From IMG/VR virus record IMGVR_UViG_2563367003_000001: a DNA stretch of 16,384 nt; one strand, 5' to 3'. A program made the position numbers and the translations under genes. Every line of letters starts with the position of its first letter. Position 1 is the stretch's first letter. This DNA comes from a virus (Duplodnaviria; Heunggongvirae; Uroviricota; Caudoviricetes). The notes under the pieces are model-generated. The model was given only the letters and a program-made list of their open reading frames with translations. It was not told where the DNA came from and ran no database searches. Below, in pieces: positions 1 to 14,091 of this stretch.

Positions 1-2160
<2,160 letters not shown>

Positions 2161-2236
2161 ACATGAGTCAATGGTGTAAGTATGTGAATGATATAAGAGG
2201 AAAAATAGAGCATAATCTCTACCTGAATGGCTATGT

Positions 2237-2272
2237 TGCAATACACACTGCAATACACACTGCAATACACAG
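2237..2272 (+). repeat. Three tandem 12-bp direct repeats TGCAATACACAC/G (candidate integrase arm-type sites or operator)
   Basis: TGCAATACACAC TGCAATACACAC TGCAATACACAG; related copies near the other end of the element (13310..13350). Confidence 0.8.
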
Positions 2273-2331
2273 AAATCAATGTACAAACCATTCAATTATC
2301 AACCCACAAATGAAGTGAATAAAGATTTGTT

Positions 2332-3093
2332 ATGAATATTATAGATACCCTTCAAAATGACCTAGAGCGCGCAGTAGCGCTTCAAAACATACTAATTGCA
2401 AGAGCTACAGGAGCCCAGGATGAAGCTAATAATGATTATTTGCTTCTAAGAACATATTTCTTACAAAATCCTCCTTTACATCAGCTATTACCAGAGTTTG
2501 TGAGAACTAATCGCTCACTAAAAGAATTTTGGGGATTTATAAAAAAGACTGAAAAGTATGCCCCCCGGAGAGATTTGATTTATAAGGCATTTCAGCCGAT
2601 GCTGGATTATCTAGAAGGGAAAAATAAAGCTCCAGCGGATGAAGACATATCTGATGTATTAAGAAAGTTTAACGAGGATGGAGTCCACGCCGTTTGGATA
2701 AAAGCACTTGAACGGCGCCATACAGATCCGGATGGTGCGATAACCTCCGCAAGAACACTTCTTGAAACAGTTTGCAAACACATTCTTGATGATATGGGCA
2801 TTCAGTATAATAATAAAAATATTGAAATGTCAGAGCTTTATAAAACTCTTTCAAAAGAACTTAACCTATCTGCCGACCAACATACTGAAAATATCTTCAA
2901 ACAAATTCTCGGCGGTTGTTCTGCAGTTGTAAATGGGTTAGGTACTCTTCGTAATAAACTCGGTGATGCACATGGAACGAACAGCTCATCAATTAAGCCA
3001 TCCCCAAGGCATGCCGAACTTGCAGTAAATTTATCAGGCTCAATGGCTCTTTTTTTAATTAACACTTGGTTAAACCTTAAAGATGGGAAATAA
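2332..3093 (+). CDS. HEPN-domain protein with Rx6H motif (Abi_C / abortive-infection-like), 253 aa
   Basis: C-terminal motif GTLRNKLGDAHG fits the HEPN R-x(4-6)-H signature seen in AbiJ/AbiU2/Abi_C proteins. AT-rich gene in the cargo position of the element. Family assignment from motif memory only. Confidence 0.6.
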   Translation: MNIIDTLQNDLERAVALQNILIARATGAQDEANNDYLLLRTYFLQNPPLHQLLPEFVRTNRSLKEFWGFIKKTEKYAPRRDLIYKAFQPMLDYLEGKNKAPADEDISDVLRKFNEDGVHAVWIKALERRHTDPDGAITSARTLLETVCKHILDDMGIQYNNKNIEMSELYKTLSKELNLSADQHTENIFKQILGGCSAVVNGLGTLRNKLGDAHGTNSSSIKPSPRHAELAVNLSGSMALFLINTWLNLKDGK

Positions 3094-3179
3094 CGTATAA
3101 TGAAGTAACACGAGCAATTAGTTAATCATTATACTCAGTCGATTAATTTATTTTGACGACTCGTAAGCAATTTTTCGAT

Positions 3180-3199
3180 GAGGGCGGAACTCCGCCCTC
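3180..3199. repeat. Perfect palindrome GAGGGCGGA-ac-TCCGCCCTC in a 360-bp non-coding spacer
   Basis: 9-bp arms, 2-nt spacer; no flanking U-tract on either strand, so not a canonical intrinsic terminator. Confidence 0.4.
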
Positions 3200-3495
3200 G
3201 GTGCTAACCTATGAGAAACGATATCTCTTCCACCGATACCATAATATTAGGTATCGCGAAGAAGCCCCAAAATCAGTGTGTTGCTTTTACTACCCAAACT
3301 ACCTGTAGTTTCATAGTTGAGTTGCAAATTTGCAATTCGACTACCAGCCACAAGGCGTAAATTTGCGTCGTCAGGAATATCAACGAGTTAGCATATGAAT
3401 AGGCCAAACGGCCACAAACCTCACTTTTGAGGCTTGCTCATTTATTAGCTGGCTATGGTAAGGCCCATTTTGGGGCCGTCGAGAAAATCAAAGAG

Positions 3496-3771
3496 TTATC
3501 GCCGCAGTCTGTCAGGCTTCTTCCACTGGTACGATGCAACGTTCTGGCGTTGTCCCTGCCTCCGCCTAGCTGCCAGTATAGCCAGCACTTTGGTGCGGAT
3601 GACTAAGCAATCCTGTCCGTTCAGTTCTATACCGTCACGCCACATAACCTCAGCAACCACACGAGCGTAATTTTCAGCGGTGACACTGCCCGGCTGCGTG
3701 GCCTGTTCGTCATGCTGGTGGCTGACTCCACCAGCATAGCAGATTACTTTCAGTAGTTCGGATTCAGTCAT
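3496..3771 (-). CDS. Hypothetical protein (91 aa), last gene of the packaging operon downstream of terS
   Basis: ORF 12 bp after the Nu1-like stop, same strand. No recognised similarity; an overlapping plus-strand ORF 3455..3670 is less protein-like. Confidence 0.4.
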   Translation of the reverse strand: MTESELLKVICYAGGVSHQHDEQATQPGSVTAENYARVVAEVMWRDGIELNGQDCLVIRTKVLAILAARRRQGQRQNVASYQWKKPDRLRR

Positions 3772-3782
3772 AGCGTACTACG

Positions 3783-4310
3783 TTACTTATCCTTATTCAG
3801 CTGCAACTTATCCGGTACGTTTCCTGTACTTTCCATCAGATAATCAGCCAGTATCTGTGGGAGGTTGTCAGCAACGCCGGCACTGGCATTACAGGCTTTA
3901 GCCACTTCCTTTTTAAGTCCATCCAGCATAGCCGGAGTCATCTGTGGGAAGCGCCTTTGCATGGTAAGCGGCAGGCTGTCCATGATAGATGAAATCTGAC
4001 TCGCCAGTTTGGAAAGAACATACATACAAAACTCTGTATCAATAACGTCGCCGCGTTCGCGCTCGTTTTTAAGCTCCTGCGCCTCTGCCTGTGCTGTCAG
4101 TAATCTGATCCTGACGCGTAAAAGTTCATCGTCATCAATATCGCCCGTTTCGTTTGTAATCTGGCTGATTGCATTGTTAACCCGATTATCTATTACACTG
4201 GCAACATCATAGAACGCCTCACGGCCCTTACGCTCGACGGGAATCACTCCCCACTTATCGAACGCAGTGGCGCTTACACGGCAACTTTTTGCCATGTTTT
4301 TTTTGTTCAT
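3783..4310 (-). CDS. Small terminase subunit, lambda Nu1-like (satellite-encoded TerS)
   Basis: Middle and C-terminal regions align with lambda Nu1 from memory (AQAEAQELKNERERGDVIDTEFCMYVLSKLASQISSIMDSLPLTMQRRFPQ versus AQADAQELKNARDSAEVVETAFCTFVLSRIAGEIASILDGLPLSVQRRFPE). Sits ~150 bp downstream of the cos-like site, as in lambda. Start chosen at MNKKNMAK; ORF track extends to 4334. Confidence 0.8.
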   Translation of the reverse strand: MNKKNMAKSCRVSATAFDKWGVIPVERKGREAFYDVASVIDNRVNNAISQITNETGDIDDDELLRVRIRLLTAQAEAQELKNERERGDVIDTEFCMYVLSKLASQISSIMDSLPLTMQRRFPQMTPAMLDGLKKEVAKACNASAGVADNLPQILADYLMESTGNVPDKLQLNKDK

Positions 4311-4399
4311 CAGGTGTAATTTCATTGATACCACAACTTAATTACTGTTTCAGGTTGGTGTATTGATTGTATTTTTCTCTTATTATTCATACAGATATA

Positions 4400-4526: not shown

Positions 4527-4910
4527 TCAACCAATCAGCTTATAGCGACCATCCCGTGCATTGCGGCGTACACGCTCAATCTTGAGGCATAGCGCCGCAT
4601 CTGGCTTTTTTGGGACAGGTACGCGGCAATATTCAGAAGCGCGAGGAATATTATTTATCCAGTCGATCACTTCACTTAAATACCAGGCCTTACGCCCTTC
4701 CGTAACCTGCACACGCTCCGGGAACTCTCCACTAGCCTCAAGGTTTAGCAGTGTACGCCGACTCAGGGTTGTAATTTCCATCACCTGATTCATATCAACA
4801 AGGCGCTCGCTTAAACACATTTTGTCAGCGATAGCTTTTAATTCCTCTACAGCTGGATTCGGGTACATCATTTCGGCAATTGGCTTAAGGTCATTGTAAT
4901 CATTCTGCAT
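4527..4910 (-). CDS. AlpA/MerR-like HTH DNA-binding protein (127 aa), between the decoration gene and cos
   Basis: MEITTLSRRTLLNLEASGEFPERVQVTEGRKAWYLSEVIDWINN fits the AlpA-family HTH pattern. RBS GGGGGA 5 nt upstream of ATG at 4910. Function (regulator versus packaging factor) unknown. Confidence 0.6.
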   Translation of the reverse strand: MQNDYNDLKPIAEMMYPNPAVEELKAIADKMCLSERLVDMNQVMEITTLSRRTLLNLEASGEFPERVQVTEGRKAWYLSEVIDWINNIPRASEYCRVPVPKKPDAALCLKIERVRRNARDGRYKLIG

Positions 4911-4921
4911 TGTATCCCCCT

Positions 4922-5263
4922 TTACACACGAGCCAGCGGCTGAACAGAAATACCTGAGCCAACAAACGCGGCAACCTTTGCCGACAGTTCTCTTACAGAC
5001 TCAGGCCAGTTCAGAGCATCAACATTTAAAACACCTGTCTTATAAACCTGTGCCTGTGTTTTTTTCGCTGTGTCGATTTGTACAGCGGAAACATAAACCG
5101 CTTTGCCTGCGCTCGTTCCATCCCATACCACTAGCGCACCAGTTGCATCTTCCTGCATCAGTGGCGTAAACGCAGGTATTACCCCTTTATTGGCTGAAAA
5201 TATCCCCAGCGTAGTAACCAGTGCTTCAGTGCCAGACATGAGTTCAGTGTAATGAGTAGCCAT
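4922..5263 (-). CDS. Head decoration protein, lambda gpD-like (satellite-encoded)
   Basis: 113 aa; AFTPLMQEDATGALVVWDGTSAGKAVYVSAV...QVYKTGVLNVDALNWPES...AFVGSGISV parallels lambda gpD ([31 protein letters not shown]...[18 protein letters not shown]...[10 protein letters not shown]). Strong RBS AAGGGGGAG. Confidence 0.8.
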   Translation of the reverse strand: MATHYTELMSGTEALVTTLGIFSANKGVIPAFTPLMQEDATGALVVWDGTSAGKAVYVSAVQIDTAKKTQAQVYKTGVLNVDALNWPESVRELSAKVAAFVGSGISVQPLARV

Positions 5264-5272
5264 TGCTCCCCC

Positions 5273-6313
5273 TTAGCCAATGCGAACGGTAACAAAACGA
5301 TTGATGCGGGCCGGTATTGGCTGTGGTGCTGAATGTGTCTGCACATATTCAATAGCCGGATCACCAGGCACAATATAGTTTTTCGGTGCAAGTTCGGCTT
5401 TAGTCAGCCCCATTCGGATTAGCTCCGGATCCTGAATACCGCCATAGGCGACAATCCCCTGAAGAGCCGTATTGCCAAGCACCATCAAATCAGGATCAAG
5501 GAAATGTTTTTCAGTTCCGTCCTCGTCGGTATAACGCCCGCTGTATACAACAATCGCAACATCGCCCATATACCCTTTAAAACTCACCGAATCACCAAGG
5601 TCTTTAAGGGCCGTTTCCAGTTCGGAATTAGAACCACGACGGGTATCCAGAGCCTCTTTTATCGCTCTGAATGAACGGTATTTCTTCCATACATTACCGC
5701 CCATAATGATGATATTAGTGACGCCCTCACTAAATTCTGCGTAGCTCTCAATATCATCATTTGGATCAAAAGTTTCTTTATCCTTACCTGACCACTCAGC
5801 ACCGCCAGACTGAGTGATGATATTTTGTGGTTTAATATTCCAGTCCAGCTCATAACGTTCAATACCATCGCCCTCAATGATATTTTTCCCCGTTGTGATT
5901 GCCTGAACGGCAAGCCATTCAATACGTGCACGAATAGCTTTAGCCTGATTTACAATCGCCTGTTTAACTTTAATATTACGCGCTCCAAAAGCATTGTATT
6001 GCTCAGGTGATACACCAGCAGGGCGCACAGCTAACTTATTTGGATCAATGCTGCTTTTCGGCTTCATATAGCCTGGACGAATTGTTTTTGATTCGTACCC
6101 TTCGTCACGTGAAACTTTACTACCCACCATAGGAGAACAAAACGCTGCAATTGGGATATTTGGATCGTCGATTGTATCAAGAATAATATCGCGCGATTCA
6201 AACATTACCGAGCGAGTAAAAAACAAACTGGTAAACAACGCATTTAGTTGTTTTTGTACATCTACAGCATTAACCACCTGTACAAGCTGGGTAGGCGAAT
6301 ATAAATCAACCAT
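5273..6313 (-). CDS. Major capsid protein, lambda gpE-family homolog (divergent, satellite-encoded)
   Basis: Shares blocks with lambda gpE: ITQSGGAEWSGKDKETFDPNDDIESYA, RRGSNSELETALKDLG, GDVAIVVYSG, GYMKPK. Start set at MVDLYSPTQ (RBS AAGAGG); ORF track extends upstream to 6487. Confidence 0.85.
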   Translation of the reverse strand: MVDLYSPTQLVQVVNAVDVQKQLNALFTSLFFTRSVMFESRDIILDTIDDPNIPIAAFCSPMVGSKVSRDEGYESKTIRPGYMKPKSSIDPNKLAVRPAGVSPEQYNAFGARNIKVKQAIVNQAKAIRARIEWLAVQAITTGKNIIEGDGIERYELDWNIKPQNIITQSGGAEWSGKDKETFDPNDDIESYAEFSEGVTNIIIMGGNVWKKYRSFRAIKEALDTRRGSNSELETALKDLGDSVSFKGYMGDVAIVVYSGRYTDEDGTEKHFLDPDLMVLGNTALQGIVAYGGIQDPELIRMGLTKAELAPKNYIVPGDPAIEYVQTHSAPQPIPARINRFVTVRIG

Positions 6314-6487
6314 ACGCATCCTCTTTGCATTCATTAAAAATAATTGTGGATATATGCTATCACCGATATTTGTCATGCGAATACATGCAACCGAGTGCAA
6401 TGTTGTATAAAGTTTTGGGATGACAACTTCAGCACGGATAATTAGTGTTAATATCTTCACTCCCTTTGGTCTGGATTTATGTAGCAT

Positions 6488-6521
6488 GCCGGAAAATTTA
6501 TTTTTTTTCCGGCCTTTTTTA
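6488..6521 (+). terminator. GC-stem hairpin with T-tract (plus-strand orientation) between ssb and the capsid gene
   Basis: GCCGGAAAA-tttatttt-TTTTCCGGC followed by CTTTTTTA on the plus strand; on the minus strand the hairpin is not followed by a U-run. Confidence 0.4.
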
Positions 6522-6531
6522 TTGGCAATAT

Positions 6532-6981
6532 TTAAAACGGAATATCATCTCCCCATTGCTCATTATCTCCCACTGGTGGATGGCTTCCTTGCTGATCTGC
6601 CTGTTGTTTTGCTCTGTTCAGTGCGTCAGTAGCCTGACCCTGTTGATCTTTTTTGCCGCCCGGTCGCACCGTTCGCGCACTGATTACGCTGTCTGCGATA
6701 ACCTGCCAGCCCTGCCGCGTTTCACCGTTCTGTCCAGTCCACTGGCTCACCTGCATATTACCCGCCACGCTCAGGAGTTCGCCTTTGTGATGCTTTGCCA
6801 GCGTGTCGGCTTGTCTGCCAAACGCCAGCACAGATAACCACATCGTCGCCGTTCCGTCATCTGCCTGGCTGCATGGCAAAGATACCGCCATCCGTGCCAG
6901 TGTCATGGGTGTTCCCTTGCTGGTATGTTTTACCTGTGGGTCGTCCACCAGCCGCCCGTAAGCTGCTATTTGCGCCGTCAT
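6532..6981 (-). CDS. ssb: Single-stranded DNA-binding protein (SSB) with C-terminal acidic tip ...WGDDIPF
   Basis: 149 aa; OB-fold-like N-terminus (AYGRLVDDPQ...), Gln/Gly-rich linker, and the DDIPF tail characteristic of bacterial/phage SSBs (E. coli SSB ends DDDIPF). Confidence 0.8.
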   Translation of the reverse strand: MTAQIAAYGRLVDDPQVKHTSKGTPMTLARMAVSLPCSQADDGTATMWLSVLAFGRQADTLAKHHKGELLSVAGNMQVSQWTGQNGETRQGWQVIADSVISARTVRPGGKKDQQGQATDALNRAKQQADQQGSHPPVGDNEQWGDDIPF

Positions 6982-7280: not shown

Positions 7281-7510
7281 CCTTGTCTACCTTGTCTACC
7301 TGATTAGTTATCAGGCCAGTAATGGCGCGGGTTTCAGGGAGGTAGACAGCCCCAAATAGCTGTCTACCTCATCTCTACCCGTCTCCTTACCTGTCTACAA
7401 AAATGGGTAGATAAGGTAGATAACAGGTAGACAGTGAAAAATAGTTATCTACCTGCATTAATACATTGAAATAAAAGTATTTTATTTCAGTCAGGTAGAC
7501 AAGGTAGATA
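7281..7510. repeat. Replication origin: iteron array (>=11 copies of GGTAGAYA/TRTCTACC in both orientations) plus AT-rich segment
   Basis: CTTGTCTACCTTGTCTACC (7282..7300), GGTAGACAG (7341), TGTCTACC (7361), CTGTCTAC (7391), GGTAGATAAGGTAGATAACAGGTAGACAG (7407..7434), TATCTACC (7447), GGTAGACAAGGTAGATAAC (7493..7511); AT-rich 7457..7490. Lies directly 3' of the helicase gene. Confidence 0.8.
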
Positions 7511-7524
7511 ACCATTGCCATTTT

Positions 7525-9276
7525 TTATAAAAACGCATCGCAATCATCAGTAGTCGTTGCGTTGGTCTGCGTGACTCCCTTAACTTTTCGCGTAATATAT
7601 TCATATCCGTAAACTTTCGCCGCTGACCTCATAGCCTTTCCGAACTCATTCACGCTCAAACATTTCCCCTTTCCTGTATATGCCATGAAGGCCATATAGA
7701 CACGGTAAAGGCTGTTTCTGGTCGTGTACTTCACGGTGTCACCACCACCGCCCATCATTAGCCCACGAGCTTCCTCCAGAAACTCCAGCGCCGCGCAAAG
7801 CTCAACAACCGGATCCGTTTGCTGCTTTATTGCCAGAGCTTCATCACCGTCACGCTGTTCCAGTAATAAAGCCCGTGCCTTTTCAGGGTCAGCAAAATTA
7901 GCCAGCAAGCGGCGGATAATTACGGGGATTTCTGCCGCTATCTTTTCCGGTAATTCCTTGTCTTTTTCGTCCTCCCTTACAATGTTGTCGAACCGGAAAA
8001 TCACCCGACGGCGTGACACACCTCCGGCCCGTTCGGTAAAGATCATCGGGTCGTTATTGGTTGCCAGTACCACCGCCCTTATTATCGTCGTGAATCGCTT
8101 CTCATATTTCGGGTTAATTTCAACGGGATCGCCTCCCGTGATTTTCTTGATGCCCGTGCCTTCCCCCGTATATTTCGGCTGATCGGCAAGGACGATAAGA
8201 CGACTCCCGACAACCTGCGCACGCCCTCCTGCATCATCGAGTGATGTCATCTCTGCGCTTACGGTGTTCTGTTTGCCAGCAAGCAGGGTGGCAATATGGG
8301 TAAATGTACTCTTACCGCTTCCCCCGTCTCCGGTGGCCTCAATGAACATCTGCCAGTCGTACCGGTTCGCCATAATCATGTACAGCGCGGCACATATACG
8401 CATCATCTTGCGCGGGTCTTTTCCGGCTGCGTGCTCAAGCCATTTATGAAAGTTTGGCGCGTTATCGCGGATGTTCTCCCCTGGTGCTGGTGGCGTGTAC
8501 TCAATGCCGTTGTGCGTGGTGATCCAGTTCTCCGGCGTGTGCGGGGAAAATTCCCCCGTTTTCAGGTCAAGCGCACCATTGGCGAACGGCAGCAAATCGC
8601 CGGACGGCTCGCCCATTGGTTCGGCAATAACTTTTAACGCTTCAACGGCGTTATTGATCACGCGTTTGCTGAAAGTGGCCCTGTGCTCTGAATAGATCGC
8701 CACCATTTCGCGGCTCAGCTCCATTGTGCTGATCGGACACCATACCCCGCCGCGCCATACGTGAACGATTTCACTTTCCGGATGCACACAAACGCCATCA
8801 AAGCGCTCGGCAAGCAGCTGCGCGCGCTCACTGTCTGCCATCTGTGAAAGTTGCGCCTTTTGCTTCGTCGGAAGATTAAGCACCAGGCTTTCCCCACGCT
8901 CGCATTCCTCTTTGAGTCGCGGCAACTGGTCGGATAAATCCACTGGGCTGGTGTCAGTAATCCCCGCGTATTCGTGTACGGTCTTCACTCCAGCCACAGC
9001 CAGTAACGTAACAATCTGCGTCATGCTGTGCTCTGTGATATGTCCTGCGCGGTAAACACGCACACACTGACGATCTTCATCAATGATCCGGTAATCGGTG
9101 ATGTTTTTCAGTTGCTCATCAGCCAACACGACAGGCGGCACATCGTCGGCGGCAATATGTTTACCCGCCCATTCCTGCCACTCTTTCGCATGGCTCCACG
9201 CATCACTACCTGCAAAGATGATTATCTCTGTCAGTCTGTCGCGTGGCTGTTTTTTTAAGTTCGGTGCCAGTTTCAT
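7525..9276 (-). CDS. Replication initiator: SF3 helicase of the D5 / P4-alpha family (primase-helicase-like), 583 aa
   Basis: Walker A GDGGSGKST and surrounding D5_N/P4-alpha C-terminal-like sequence; followed by the iteron origin. The N-terminal ~250 aa may be a primase-like domain (not verified). Confidence 0.75.
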   Translation of the reverse strand: MKLAPNLKKQPRDRLTEIIIFAGSDAWSHAKEWQEWAGKHIAADDVPPVVLADEQLKNITDYRIIDEDRQCVRVYRAGHITEHSMTQIVTLLAVAGVKTVHEYAGITDTSPVDLSDQLPRLKEECERGESLVLNLPTKQKAQLSQMADSERAQLLAERFDGVCVHPESEIVHVWRGGVWCPISTMELSREMVAIYSEHRATFSKRVINNAVEALKVIAEPMGEPSGDLLPFANGALDLKTGEFSPHTPENWITTHNGIEYTPPAPGENIRDNAPNFHKWLEHAAGKDPRKMMRICAALYMIMANRYDWQMFIEATGDGGSGKSTFTHIATLLAGKQNTVSAEMTSLDDAGGRAQVVGSRLIVLADQPKYTGEGTGIKKITGGDPVEINPKYEKRFTTIIRAVVLATNNDPMIFTERAGGVSRRRVIFRFDNIVREDEKDKELPEKIAAEIPVIIRRLLANFADPEKARALLLEQRDGDEALAIKQQTDPVVELCAALEFLEEARGLMMGGGGDTVKYTTRNSLYRVYMAFMAYTGKGKCLSVNEFGKAMRSAAKVYGYEYITRKVKGVTQTNATTTDDCDAFL

Positions 9277-11830: not shown

Positions 11831-12058
11831 TTAAACTACCCACTCACCTCGAATCCATGCCTGCACTTCTGAAAGACGATATGCAACAGCAGTGGAACCA
11901 ATCTTGATCCGCTTAGGAAATTTTCCTTCCTTCTCCAGCTTCCAGCGTGTGCTGTTCGCAAGAGTGGTTAGCTCCCGACATTCTTTCTCACGGATCATTC
12001 GGTCAATGTTAGGAATGTACTCCAGACCCTTTTTATCAACAATTGCCATTTTTTTCAT
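11831..12058 (-). CDS. alpA: AlpA-family HTH protein (excisionase/Vis-like regulator), 75 aa
   Basis: IREKECRELTTLANSTRWKLEKEGKFPKRIKIGSTAVAYRLSEVQAWI fits the AlpA pattern; immediately downstream of the integrase gene. Confidence 0.8.
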   Translation of the reverse strand: MKKMAIVDKKGLEYIPNIDRMIREKECRELTTLANSTRWKLEKEGKFPKRIKIGSTAVAYRLSEVQAWIRGEWVV

Positions 12059-12059
12059 G

Positions 12060-13295
12060 TTAACCAGCCTTTTGTTTGAGGATTGTCACTTTTGAATCAG
12101 CACCTGCGATGCTATTGAGATATGTAGTCCAGAGTTCCAGAGCATCCAGTTTTTTAGCCATAAACTTACTCCGGTTGTAAACACCTGCCACGCCAGGTAG
12201 CGCATGGCCTAACAGTTGTTCTACTACATAAAATTCAACACCGAGATCACTTAGATGAGTAGATAGCGTTCTTCTAAGGTCGTGTAGTGACCATTGTTTT
12301 TCATGGCCCAAACGTTTACCGATTTTCCCCCCAATCTTGCTTACGCTTTCTCTAATTCGCAGACTTCCCAGCACATAACCAGTATGTTTTGTCTCTTCGT
12401 GAACATCCGTTACCCACTGTCGTAGAATTTCAGGTACTGGTCTGACGATTTCAACACCAGTTTTTGAGTGATCTTTTGGTACAGTCCAAACCCAACTTTC
12501 GAGATCCCATTCGCTCCATTCTGATAATCGGGCTTCACTCATTCGACATCCAAATACTGTACAAAGCACAAACATTTTTCGCGTGTATTCAGACATTAGT
12601 TTTAAATCAGGCTCGACAAAAATTGCCTTCCAGAGCTGGCCGAGTTCGGCTTCATCCAGAACCCGATCCCGCTTACCTGCAATCTGCCCCACATCACTCA
12701 TGCGCAAATCCTTTAAAGCATCACACGTCGCGTACTGGCGTACCCGACAAAAACGAAGAGCTAATTTAGTGTCAGAAAAAACATACGCCGCCATAACTGG
12801 TGCATTACGTTTAATTCGGTCAAAACAGTCCAGCCATTCATATAGGTGAGTGTCATTTACGGGCAAATGACCGATATAGGGAAAGATATGCTTTCGAAAT
12901 CTGCCAAGCGTTACAGCATGAGTTTTACGACGCACCTTACAGTAATTTTCATACCAGTAATTTAGTGCATCCTCCACTGTAACCGGCTTTAAGCGTTCTT
13001 CAGCCTGAATCTTAATCTGGATACGCGGATCACGTTTGTCAGCCAACCAACCACGGCACTCGTCGCGCTTTTCCCTTGCCTGTTTGAGTGACATATCAGG
13101 ATATTTACCCAACGTTAGCCAGACCGGAGCAGCCCGGCCACCTGCTAACCTGTAGAAGAAAACAAAGCTCACAGCCCCTTTAGTACTCACACGAATAGAA
13201 AGCCCCTTTCCATCAGCAATGGTGATCTGCTTTTCTCTGGGTTTCCCCAGATATCCTTTAAGCGCTTTGTCGCTCAGTTTGTTCTCGCCAGCCAT
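12060..13295 (-). CDS. int: Tyrosine site-specific integrase, P4-type
   Basis: N-terminal arm-binding-like region (LSDKALKGYLGKPREKQITIADGKGLSIRVSTKGAVSFVFFYR), catalytic-box residues (HDLRRT, LLGHA...GVYNRS). Start set at MAGENKLSDK; ORF track extends to a GTG at 13346. Confidence 0.9.
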   Translation of the reverse strand: MAGENKLSDKALKGYLGKPREKQITIADGKGLSIRVSTKGAVSFVFFYRLAGGRAAPVWLTLGKYPDMSLKQAREKRDECRGWLADKRDPRIQIKIQAEERLKPVTVEDALNYWYENYCKVRRKTHAVTLGRFRKHIFPYIGHLPVNDTHLYEWLDCFDRIKRNAPVMAAYVFSDTKLALRFCRVRQYATCDALKDLRMSDVGQIAGKRDRVLDEAELGQLWKAIFVEPDLKLMSEYTRKMFVLCTVFGCRMSEARLSEWSEWDLESWVWTVPKDHSKTGVEIVRPVPEILRQWVTDVHEETKHTGYVLGSLRIRESVSKIGGKIGKRLGHEKQWSLHDLRRTLSTHLSDLGVEFYVVEQLLGHALPGVAGVYNRSKFMAKKLDALELWTTYLNSIAGADSKVTILKQKAG

Positions 13296-13309: not shown

Positions 13310-13350
13310 AGCAATACAAGCTGCAATACAGAGATGATTGCAACACACAG
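13310..13350 (+). repeat. Direct repeats related to TGCAATACA (AGCAATACA, TGCAATACA, TGCAACACA) upstream of int
   Basis: Same motif and orientation as the 3x12-bp array at 2237..2272 at the opposite end of the element. Confidence 0.7.
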
Positions 13351-13457: not shown

Positions 13458-13703
13458 GTGCTTCGGCTTGACATATCCCGGCGTAAATTCAGAGGTGGAG
13501 CCGCCACGGGAGCGGATAACCTCACCGGAAACAATCGGCGAAACGTACAGCGCCATGTTTACCAGCCCCGGAATTTGTGAGAGATAGACTTTCTCCGTGG
13601 TGAAGGGATAGCTCTCACGGAAAAAGAGACGCAGAAACAGCGGATCAAACTTAAATTTCTGCTCATTTGCCGCCAGCAGCTGGGCGGTTGTGTACATCGA
13701 CAT
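13458..13703 (-). pseudogene. E: Lambda-like major capsid protein E, N-terminal fragment (residues 1 to ~91), interrupted by the inserted element
   Basis: MSMYTTAQLLAANEQKFKFDPLFLRLFFRESYPFTTEKVYLSQIPGLVNMALYVSPIVSGEVIRSRGGSTSEFTPGYVKPKH matches the lambda gpE N-terminus; the frame then reads 9 unrelated codons (LAWLSEAFV) into the element and stops at 13428. Confidence 0.9.
13459..13468. repeat. Right junction core (attR-like): TGCTTCGGCT
   Basis: Identical to 2151..2160; lambda E sequence continues on the high-coordinate side. Confidence 0.7.
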
Positions 13704-13758: not shown

Positions 13759-14091
13759 TTAAACGATGCTGATTGCCGTTCCGGCAAACGCGGTCCGTTT
13801 TTTCGTCTCGTCGCTGGCAGCCTCCGGCCAGAGCACATCCTCATAACGGAACGTGCCGGACTTGTAGAACGTCAGCGTGGTGCTGGTCTGGTCAGCAGCA
13901 ACAGCAAGAATGCCAACGGCAGCACCGTCGGTGGTGCCATCCCACGCAACCAGCTTACGGGTGGAGGTGTCCAGCATCAGCGGGGTCATTGCAGGCGCTT
14001 TCGCACTCAATCCGCCAGGCGCAATTGCTGTATGAGCCGGATCACTGTTACCCAGCGGCTGGTAATGGTTAAACTCTTCTTTTGTCGCCAT
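13759..14091 (-). CDS. D: Head decoration protein D (lambda gpD)
   Basis: 110 aa, near-identical to recalled lambda gpD (…[78 protein letters not shown]). Confidence 0.92.

Follow-up and report, generated by a model that had tools for sequence, protein, structure and literature searches.

The DNA considered here is a stretch of 16,384 nucleotides (the window) from a virus of the Caudoviricetes, IMG/VR virus record IMGVR_UViG_2563367003_000001. It holds head genes of a lambda-like prophage and, lodged within them, a satellite island of 11,308 bp that lies between 10-bp direct repeats. On its minus strand this island carries two adjacent genes that resemble those for the coat protein (gpE) and the head decoration protein (gpD) of phage lambda. 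The first (6313..5273) encodes an E-like homolog of the major capsid protein, 346 amino acids long; the second (5263..4922) encodes a D-like homolog of the head decoration protein, 113 amino acids long. The E-like gene starts with the ATG at 6313, preceded by the ribosome-binding site AAGAGGA, and the RefSeq annotation of an identical copy has the same start. There, in Escherichia coli strain 104, the two products are labeled “major capsid protein” and “head decoration protein.”

Sequence comparison confirms the predicted identities, a coat protein of the gpE family at 6313..5273 and a decoration protein of the gpD/SHP family at 5263..4922. The Pfam profile Phage_cap_E (PF03864) matches the E-like protein at 1.4e-41 (143 bits, with a cut-off of 22.9) over positions 4-327 of the 329 in the profile, and the PHROG “major head protein” profile matches it at 3.4e-89. 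The protein also matches, in sequence and at full length, the solved structures 3BQW (2.6e-121) and lambda gpE (7VI9; 2.3e-76). Profile and solved relatives alike thus place it, as a predicted coat protein, in the gpE-type major capsid protein family. An AlphaFold model of the E-like protein, built from an alignment of 13 sequences, reached a predicted local distance difference test score (pLDDT) of 39 and was unusable. A fold search is dispensable because sequence matches to solved structures exist.

For the D-like protein, the Pfam profile HDPD (PF02924) matches at 4.6e-15 (56 bits; cut-off 29.1), and the PHROG “head decoration” profile at 1.9e-26. Among solved structures, its sequence matches the SHP protein of phage 21 (3e-16) and lambda gpD (about 1e-12). 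Here, an AlphaFold model could be used (pLDDT 84.9). This superposes on SHP with template modeling (TM) scores of 0.81/0.90, and on lambda gpD as it sits in the virion with TM scores of 0.85/0.89 and a root-mean-square deviation of about 1.6 Å. By profile and by modeled fold, therefore, the D-like protein is a predicted member of the gpD/SHP family of head decoration proteins.

These results bear directly on a sequence-only reading of the window, which had proposed that the two genes are homologs of lambda E and D with matching sizes. That proposal stands. The reading had staked itself beforehand on a formal search for similarity to gpE and gpD, and the search found significant similarity for both. 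The satellite proteins share their Pfam families and folds with lambda gpE and gpD and with phage 21 SHP, and their lengths are nearly equal (346 versus 341 amino acids for the E-like protein, 113 versus 110 for the D-like). The inverted order that the reading had seen is also real. In the satellite, E precedes D; in the resident prophage of the same window, as in lambda, D (14091..13759) precedes E (from 13703). The two systems differ further in that the identity between them is only about 43% (E) and 41% (D), and in that no portal and no C/Nu3 genes precede the satellite pair, which is no full head operon.

Two fused proteins from the database touch on this pair. In the window, the E-like and D-like genes share a frame and are separated by a stop and three codons, and one database protein (P0005) is an E-like/D-like fusion of 463 amino acids that arose through loss of the E-like stop codon. 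Read-through to such a fusion was considered as a designed feature and rejected; the frame relation is not kept in other satellites. A second protein (P0146), annotated as “terminase small subunit,” is a deletion fusion that joins a D-like N-terminus to the C-terminus of a Nu1-like protein.

The place where the island sits is as telling as the pair that it carries. The 10-bp core of its attachment (att) site, AGCCGAAGCA on the minus strand, is repeated exactly at both junctions, at 13459..13468 on the integrase-proximal side and at 2151..2160 on the distal side. This core covers codons K79 to H82 of the E gene of the helper prophage. The 5' fragment of that gene (13469..13703, minus strand) encodes amino acids 1 to about 79, before the core, and its translation is the N-terminus of lambda gpE; the 3' fragment (1370..2150, minus strand) matches positions 94-328 of the Pfam Phage_cap_E profile. 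When the two are joined in silico with a single core between them, the open reading frame (ORF) is whole again, with 341 amino acids, of which 338 are identical to those of lambda gpE. Upstream of the split gene lie the prophage gene for decoration protein D (13759..14091, minus strand; identified from its translation and by tblastn), in the lambda order of D before E, and those for the S49 protease and the portal. All of the genes concerned are on the minus strand, and the island is co-oriented with the late operon of its helper.

This supports well the view that the element is a classical phage-inducible chromosomal island (PICI) of Gram-negative bacteria, of the EcCICFT073 type, which interrupts the E gene of a lambda-like prophage at codon 80. 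It has the marks of that class, with int and AlpA at one end, a D5_N primase with iterons, a single-stranded DNA-binding protein (SSB), unidirectional genes, a length within the 10-20 kb range, and flanking att sites. The insertion within the E gene is the most telling context of the pair, and the sequence-only reading had left it unused.

The feature itself is not new: classical PICIs have it as the pair c1499/c1500, and it has been described within a helper-embedded PICI, 11capE. Fillol-Salom et al. (2018; PMC6092414) described c1499 of EcCICFT073 as a capsid gene and c1500 as a head decoration gene, and asked whether they act like Ccm, the capsid homolog of SaPIbov5. The DNA packaged with EcCICFT073 was all phage-sized. 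Deletion of c1499 or c1500 neither restored plaquing of lambda nor changed transfer of the island and, by the authors' own statement, no phenotype was found for c1499 (PMC6092414).

The EcCICFT073 capsid product has 351 amino acids and is essentially identical to the protein in crystal structure PDB 3BQW. As in the window, EcCICFT073 carries the same two families, E then D, after pri/SSB and before a small-terminase-like region, and, like the element here, it has no portal, protease or TerL (the large terminase subunit). On these comparisons the pair is a predicted ortholog of c1499/c1500, and so the late zone is that of an EcCICFT073-type PICI. The differences are nevertheless several. At 55% (E, c1499) and 54% (D, c1500) identity, the proteins are diverged, paralog-level relatives within one satellite clade. 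EcCICFT073 sits at the chromosomal roxA/phoQ site, this element inside a helper E gene; in place of the Nu1-like protein of this element, EcCICFT073 has RppA; and EcCICFT073 has an extra ORF of 68 amino acids abutting its capsid gene, which sets it apart from this element.

For the insertion, the precedent is Eco567.11capE, described by Tommasini, Mageeney and Williams (2023; PMC10111431) as a PICI of the helper-embedded kind (HE-PICI) at the site E:Phage_cap_E_80. They found 201 instances, gave the configuration its name, reported a 10-bp identity block for 11capE, suggested the role of a “backup intact copy,” and showed excision of 11capE after induction. Like Eco567.11capE, the element in the window is an 11-kb PICI inside a lambda-like capsid gene E, co-oriented with it, with a 10-bp block at its junctions and an E homolog of its own that differs from the helper gene at the att-like stretch. 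Here, E is split into 13703..13459 and 2160..1370, and the 10-bp block is centered on codon 80. From copy to copy, the cargo end varies, with an AbiJ-like gene here and DUF262 plus HEPN, TIR or other genes elsewhere. Judged by the published description, this element is very probably of the same kind and family as Eco567.11capE.

Two further kinds of satellite invite comparison. SaPIbov5, like this element, carries a homolog of its helper's major capsid protein and is the satellite of a cos phage. According to the papers (their statements, not a sequence comparison), Ccm redirects capsid size and interferes with the helper, whereas the equivalent test on c1499/c1500 was negative; moreover, Ccm has no partner decoration protein. 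The capsid-forming PICIs (EcCIEDL933; Alqurainy et al., bioRxiv 10.1101/2022.09.08.507074) build small capsids of their own. They share with this element a backbone of the int/alpA/rep type and a capsid protein encoded by the satellite, but add protease, portal, head-tail connectors, HNH, TerS (the small terminase subunit) and TerL, a set absent from this element.

The absence of most head genes was likewise part of the sequence-only reading, and it holds. When every ORF of the element was compared with Pfam, none matched a portal, an S49/ClpP protease, a scaffold or TerL. A PHROG scan of ten ORFs of the element, among them the capsid pair and most of the small ORFs nearby, agreed. Eight ORFs of 61-101 amino acids have no Pfam match, and a novel small assembly factor is possible among them. 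The element is therefore not a capsid-forming PICI, which has a portal, protease, head-tail connectors, TerL and HNH besides its capsid protein. Nor does it stand between the classical and the capsid-forming PICIs, as the reading had also proposed; the pair is standard in classical Gram-negative PICIs, where 21 of 29 references have a capsid gene (PMC10111431). Its suggestion that the pair makes smaller capsids, in the manner of the SaPIbov5 homolog, fares no better, given the phage-sized DNA packaged with the orthologous c1499/c1500 and the lack of effect of their deletion (PMC6092414). Overall, that earlier interpretation is partly supported.

Where did the pair come from? Amino acid identity to the proteins of the resident prophage is 43% for the E-like protein and 41% for the D-like. 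For the E-like protein, it is unevenly spread, rising from 28% in the N-terminal half to 53% in the C-terminal one. Synonymous sites are saturated between the satellite pair and resident E and D, and the longest exact DNA word common to the satellite and helper E genes in the window is 10 nucleotides. In the database, the identities of E-like homologs are bimodal, being either at least 50% or at most 44%. The members at or below 44% belong to phages, whose genes run Nu1, A, W, portal, S49, D, E, FI. Except for one hybrid described below, all of the members at or above 50% whose contexts were read lie in satellites that lack a portal and TerL. In gene order, these satellites have int, alpA, one of three replication modules, and then E followed by D.

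The sites that these satellites occupy are diverse. They include the cspD/clpS site in E. coli, the roxA/phoQ site in E. coli and CFT073, the fis site in Serratia and Lelliottia, the inside of a prophage portal gene in Edwardsiella and, in Cedecea and Kosakonia, the inside of E; further members occur in satellites of Kluyvera and Superficieibacter. The pair thus belongs to an old, satellite-only clade that spans at least nine enterobacterial genera and always has the order E then D. This clade stands well apart from all phage E proteins, which in turn means that the capture was ancient and that the genes have been kept since. A profile scan of genome contigs with the E-like alignment, which relied on narrow peptide patterns, gave four loci and serves as context, not as a census.

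How the genes have been kept can be read from their substitutions. The E/D pair, counted at a coverage of at least 80%, is present with both ORFs intact in 395 of the 5426 complete E. coli genomes. The ratio of nonsynonymous to synonymous divergence (dN/dS) is 0.06-0.17 for the E-like gene (0.058 at a dS of 0.13, 0.087 at a dS of 1.2) and 0.06-0.2 for the D-like gene (0.06-0.11 at a dS of about 0.25). Over 11 loci, the divergences of the two are correlated (r = 0.90). That purifying selection keeps both satellite genes is thus well supported.

There are also signs of recombination. Between this element (4922-6313) and a PICI at the cspD/clpS site (L002:8999-10390), dS is 1.2 for the E-like gene and 0.27 for the D-like gene, a mosaic that implies a recombination breakpoint between the two. 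The hybrid mentioned above lies on a metagenomic scaffold from ENA (L015:2801-4431; protein P0044). Across its 5' two-thirds, its E gene has 96-100% identity to that of the lambda-like helper; across the remaining 3' third, it has 98-100% identity to the satellite E-like gene. The switch between the two falls at about nucleotides 660-720. Phage portal, S49 and D genes come before it, and satellite D-like and AlpA genes after it. Either the gene is natural, a recombinant or cointegrate of phage and satellite, or it is a chimera of assembly. In a different direction, the fis-site PICI of Lelliottia sp. SL45 (L012:8001-10752) has E-like, D-like, and then an S49 peptidase of 447 amino acids. This order reverses the C-D-E of the phage, and a gene of the protease/scaffold type does, therefore, occur in some relatives.

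The remaining genes of the island follow the plan of its class. At the integrase-proximal end, on the minus strand, lie the tyrosine integrase (12060..13295; Pfam Arm-DNA-bind_3 and Phage_integrase, with the start taken from RefSeq for an identical copy) and an AlpA protein of the integration zone (11831..12058; Phage_AlpA, 2.8e-15). Small ORFs, one of them with DUF4222, follow in minus-strand order before the primase/helicase (7525..9276, minus strand; D5_N and DUF5906 in Pfam). Between this and the satellite SSB (6532..6981, minus strand; Pfam SSB, 3.4e-15) are iteron-like repeats of two families, D6 and D12 (7340..7512), which are the probable origin of replication (ori) of the satellite. 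Published PICI origins lie downstream of pri (PMC10111431), and the position of the iterons here agrees.

Directly 3' of the D-like gene is a second regulator of the AlpA family (4527..4910, minus strand; Phage_AlpA, 7.6e-09; the AlpA-family structure PDB 8C3T, 2e-09), in a position that is kept in relatives. It is followed by a Nu1-like homolog of the small terminase (3783..4334, minus strand; Phage_Nu1, 1.1e-24; PHROG terminase small subunit, 3e-53), which is 89% identical to its counterpart in a PICI of the 3BQW type. Two proteins were considered as Rpp, which in EcCICFT073-type PICIs redirects the TerS of the helper, and both were rejected. The Nu1-like protein is unrelated to RppA of EcCICFT073 and matches no PDB entry, RppC included; the 127-amino-acid protein after the D-like gene is of the AlpA family. 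This does not exclude the element from the PICIs, because not all members of the family have an Rpp.

The variable end of the island carries an abortive infection gene of the AbiJ/Abi_C type as cargo (2332..3093, plus strand; Pfam Abi_C, 1.3e-23; PADLOC AbiJ, 2e-21), which is swapped for other cargo in relatives. The att-distal end as a whole (2161-4340) is a swap zone. Here, and also in TUM13867, it holds the AbiJ-like and Nu1-like genes; in the strain 104 copy, DUF262 plus HEPN without any Nu1-like gene; and in the DS26-1 copy, DUF3892 and others. TUM13867 has, in addition, a TIR-domain gene between alpA and an Icd-like gene, away from this end. Since some copies have lost the small-terminase homolog, one may ask how they are packaged. 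Outside the island, downstream of the 3' fragment of E, Rfam places a match to the Hfq-binding small RNA isrC (150 bits; 1068-1190, minus strand), apparently inside the FI-gene region of the prophage.

Of 5426 complete E. coli genomes, 173 have an occupied E-gene junction and 3103 an empty site of the lambda type, so that a satellite inside the coat gene of a prophage is present in about one of every 20 genomes with the E-gene site. Other E-inserted copies have identical integrases.

Some features near the pair hint at its regulation. In the 218-bp gap upstream of the E-like gene is a triple TTGCA repeat, TTGCACTCGGTTGCATGTATTCGCA (6376..6400, minus strand), found by aligning satellites and a putative site of E/D operon regulation. 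Its position and spacing upstream of the E-like gene are kept in the alignment of eight satellites from several genera, and related TTGCA/TGCAA repeats occur in EcCICFT073-type elements. A similar short motif, GTATTGCA, forms doubled repeats beside both att sites (2237-2273 and 13311-13334). The motif common to the region upstream of the E-like gene and the att arms has three matches where 0.43 are expected, and 5 of 200 shuffled sequences reach three. The motif is, of course, short, and a connection between the TTGCA repeats and those of the att arms is offered only as a lead. These patterns hint that the E/D operon could have a regulated promoter of its own, to which one or the other AlpA protein might bind. 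A shared site, for AlpA for example, may even tie excision to expression of the late zone. Scans for promoter and terminator consensus sequences around the pair gave counts no higher than in shuffled sequence, and a hairpin after SSB (6488-6513) has a T-run on the plus strand only.

What, then, might the pair do? The explanation that we favor, with a probability of roughly 0.45, is that it supplies coat protein to the machinery of the helper, and that this matters mainly when the helper E gene is split. Here, the E-like protein would be a genuine shell protein, assembling on the portal, scaffold and protease of the helper into lambda-sized shells that are either pure or mixed with helper gpE. 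The cognate D-like trimer would then stabilize the expanded, DNA-filled shell. The satellite would thereby have its own supply of coat, redundant while the helper E gene is intact and useful once the satellite itself interrupts that gene. While integrated, the pair would be transcribed by read-through from the helper late operon, and probably also from a conserved promoter region of its own. The satellite DNA would be packaged by the helper terminase together with the satellite Nu1-like protein, as a concatemer of about four units (4 x 11.3 = 45 kb; 45.2 kb fits a lambda head).

The rationale for taking the E-like protein to be a shell protein comes from its partner. The binding site of a decoration protein exists only on the assembled, expanded shell, as is established for lambda gpD. 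The keeping of a co-diverging D-like gene therefore suggests that the E-like protein really does form shells. Redundancy with plentiful helper gpE would, in turn, explain why the EcCICFT073 knock-outs had no phenotype.

Several points weigh against this explanation. The only knock-outs, those in EcCICFT073, fit redundancy and fit a non-assembly role equally well. The pair is equally conserved in PICIs at the chromosomal cspD/clpS, roxA/phoQ and fis sites, which means that it cannot serve in general to back up a split helper E. Because the E-like protein shares only 43% of its residues with helper gpE (28% within its N-terminal half), compatibility with the helper portal, scaffold and protease is not assured, and the model of the E-like protein (pLDDT 39) is too poor for looking at interfaces. 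As for the packaging step, no lambda cosN (GGGCGGCGACCT, at most one mismatch) occurs in the window.

A stronger proposal is that the embedded satellite actually replaces the coat gene of its helper, with E-like and D-like proteins made by read-through serving as the sole coat and decoration proteins. This is unlikely. Were it true, early heads would have helper portals but shells coated by the satellite, and the pair would be essential on one condition only, the embedded configuration, which again would explain the lack of phenotype in EcCICFT073. The homology between satellite and helper E genes would then drive recombinants or cointegrates such as the L015 hybrid, and would be a route for exchange of coat genes.

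Other explanations part from coat supply altogether, or turn it to a different end. Interference with lambdoid phages other than the helper, by poison subunits that lead to dead-end shells or by decoys, would benefit both host and satellite. It would suit the conservation of the pair whatever the integration site, and PICIs carry many anti-phage functions, the AbiJ-like cargo here among them; defenses that interfere with assembly and are encoded by prophages and PICIs are on record (PMC10884400, PMC11364771). Lambda, moreover, was the only phage tested in the knock-outs. However, deleting the pair did not restore lambda plaquing, PADLOC matches neither protein, and a poison subunit would not need a decoration protein that co-evolves with it (r = 0.90). 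We consider such a role unlikely. Redirection of capsid size in the manner of Ccm, where coat and decoration proteins on the helper portal, scaffold and protease would make small shells that hold one 11.3-kb genome and exclude that of the helper, appears quite improbable. A satellite-encoded coat homolog is, of course, precisely the strategy of SaPIbov5, and Pasteurella PmCI172, which also has a capsid homolog, makes small capsids (PMC6092414). The N-terminal half of the E-like protein has diverged strongly from helper gpE (28% identity), and by a rough volume argument 11.3 kb would fit a lambda-type shell of T=3 size. But the orthologous system packaged only phage-sized DNA, its deletions neither relieved interference with lambda nor altered transfer, and four copies of this genome (45 kb) fit a normal lambda head.

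It might also be that the pair does nothing. PICIs are documented to take late genes of their helpers into their own late zones (PMC10111431), the knock-outs lack a phenotype, and the metagenomic hybrid joins phage and satellite E genes; a leftover of capture could simply hitch-hike, offering at most homology for recombination with helper head genes. Such a leftover would hardly be expected to keep both ORFs unbroken in 395 of 5426 E. coli genomes, and in nine genera or more, with a dN/dS of 0.06-0.2 even near synonymous saturation and in a clade well separated from all phage E proteins, and it is very improbable. The chance that the genes are a duplicated remnant of the resident head genes is negligible. 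The sequence-only reading had named this as the finding that would undo it, and the window does hold a prophage D gene and a split E gene. Yet the low identity, the saturated dS, the 10-nucleotide longest word and the inverted order all reject a duplication, and the same pair is present in satellites outside prophages. With its separate clade, the pair is part of the mobile element, as that reading had it.

The pair is among the commonest late genes of Gram-negative PICIs and is found also in many other Enterobacterales. Its role is thus a known puzzle rather than a new discovery, one in which an ortholog already has a crystal structure and knock-outs without phenotype. What the helper-embedded context adds is a concrete condition that can be tested, a split helper coat gene, under which the pair might matter. 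In the textbook view, the particles of classical PICIs are made of phage proteins only. If it is true that the pair builds or helps to build particles, that view would change.

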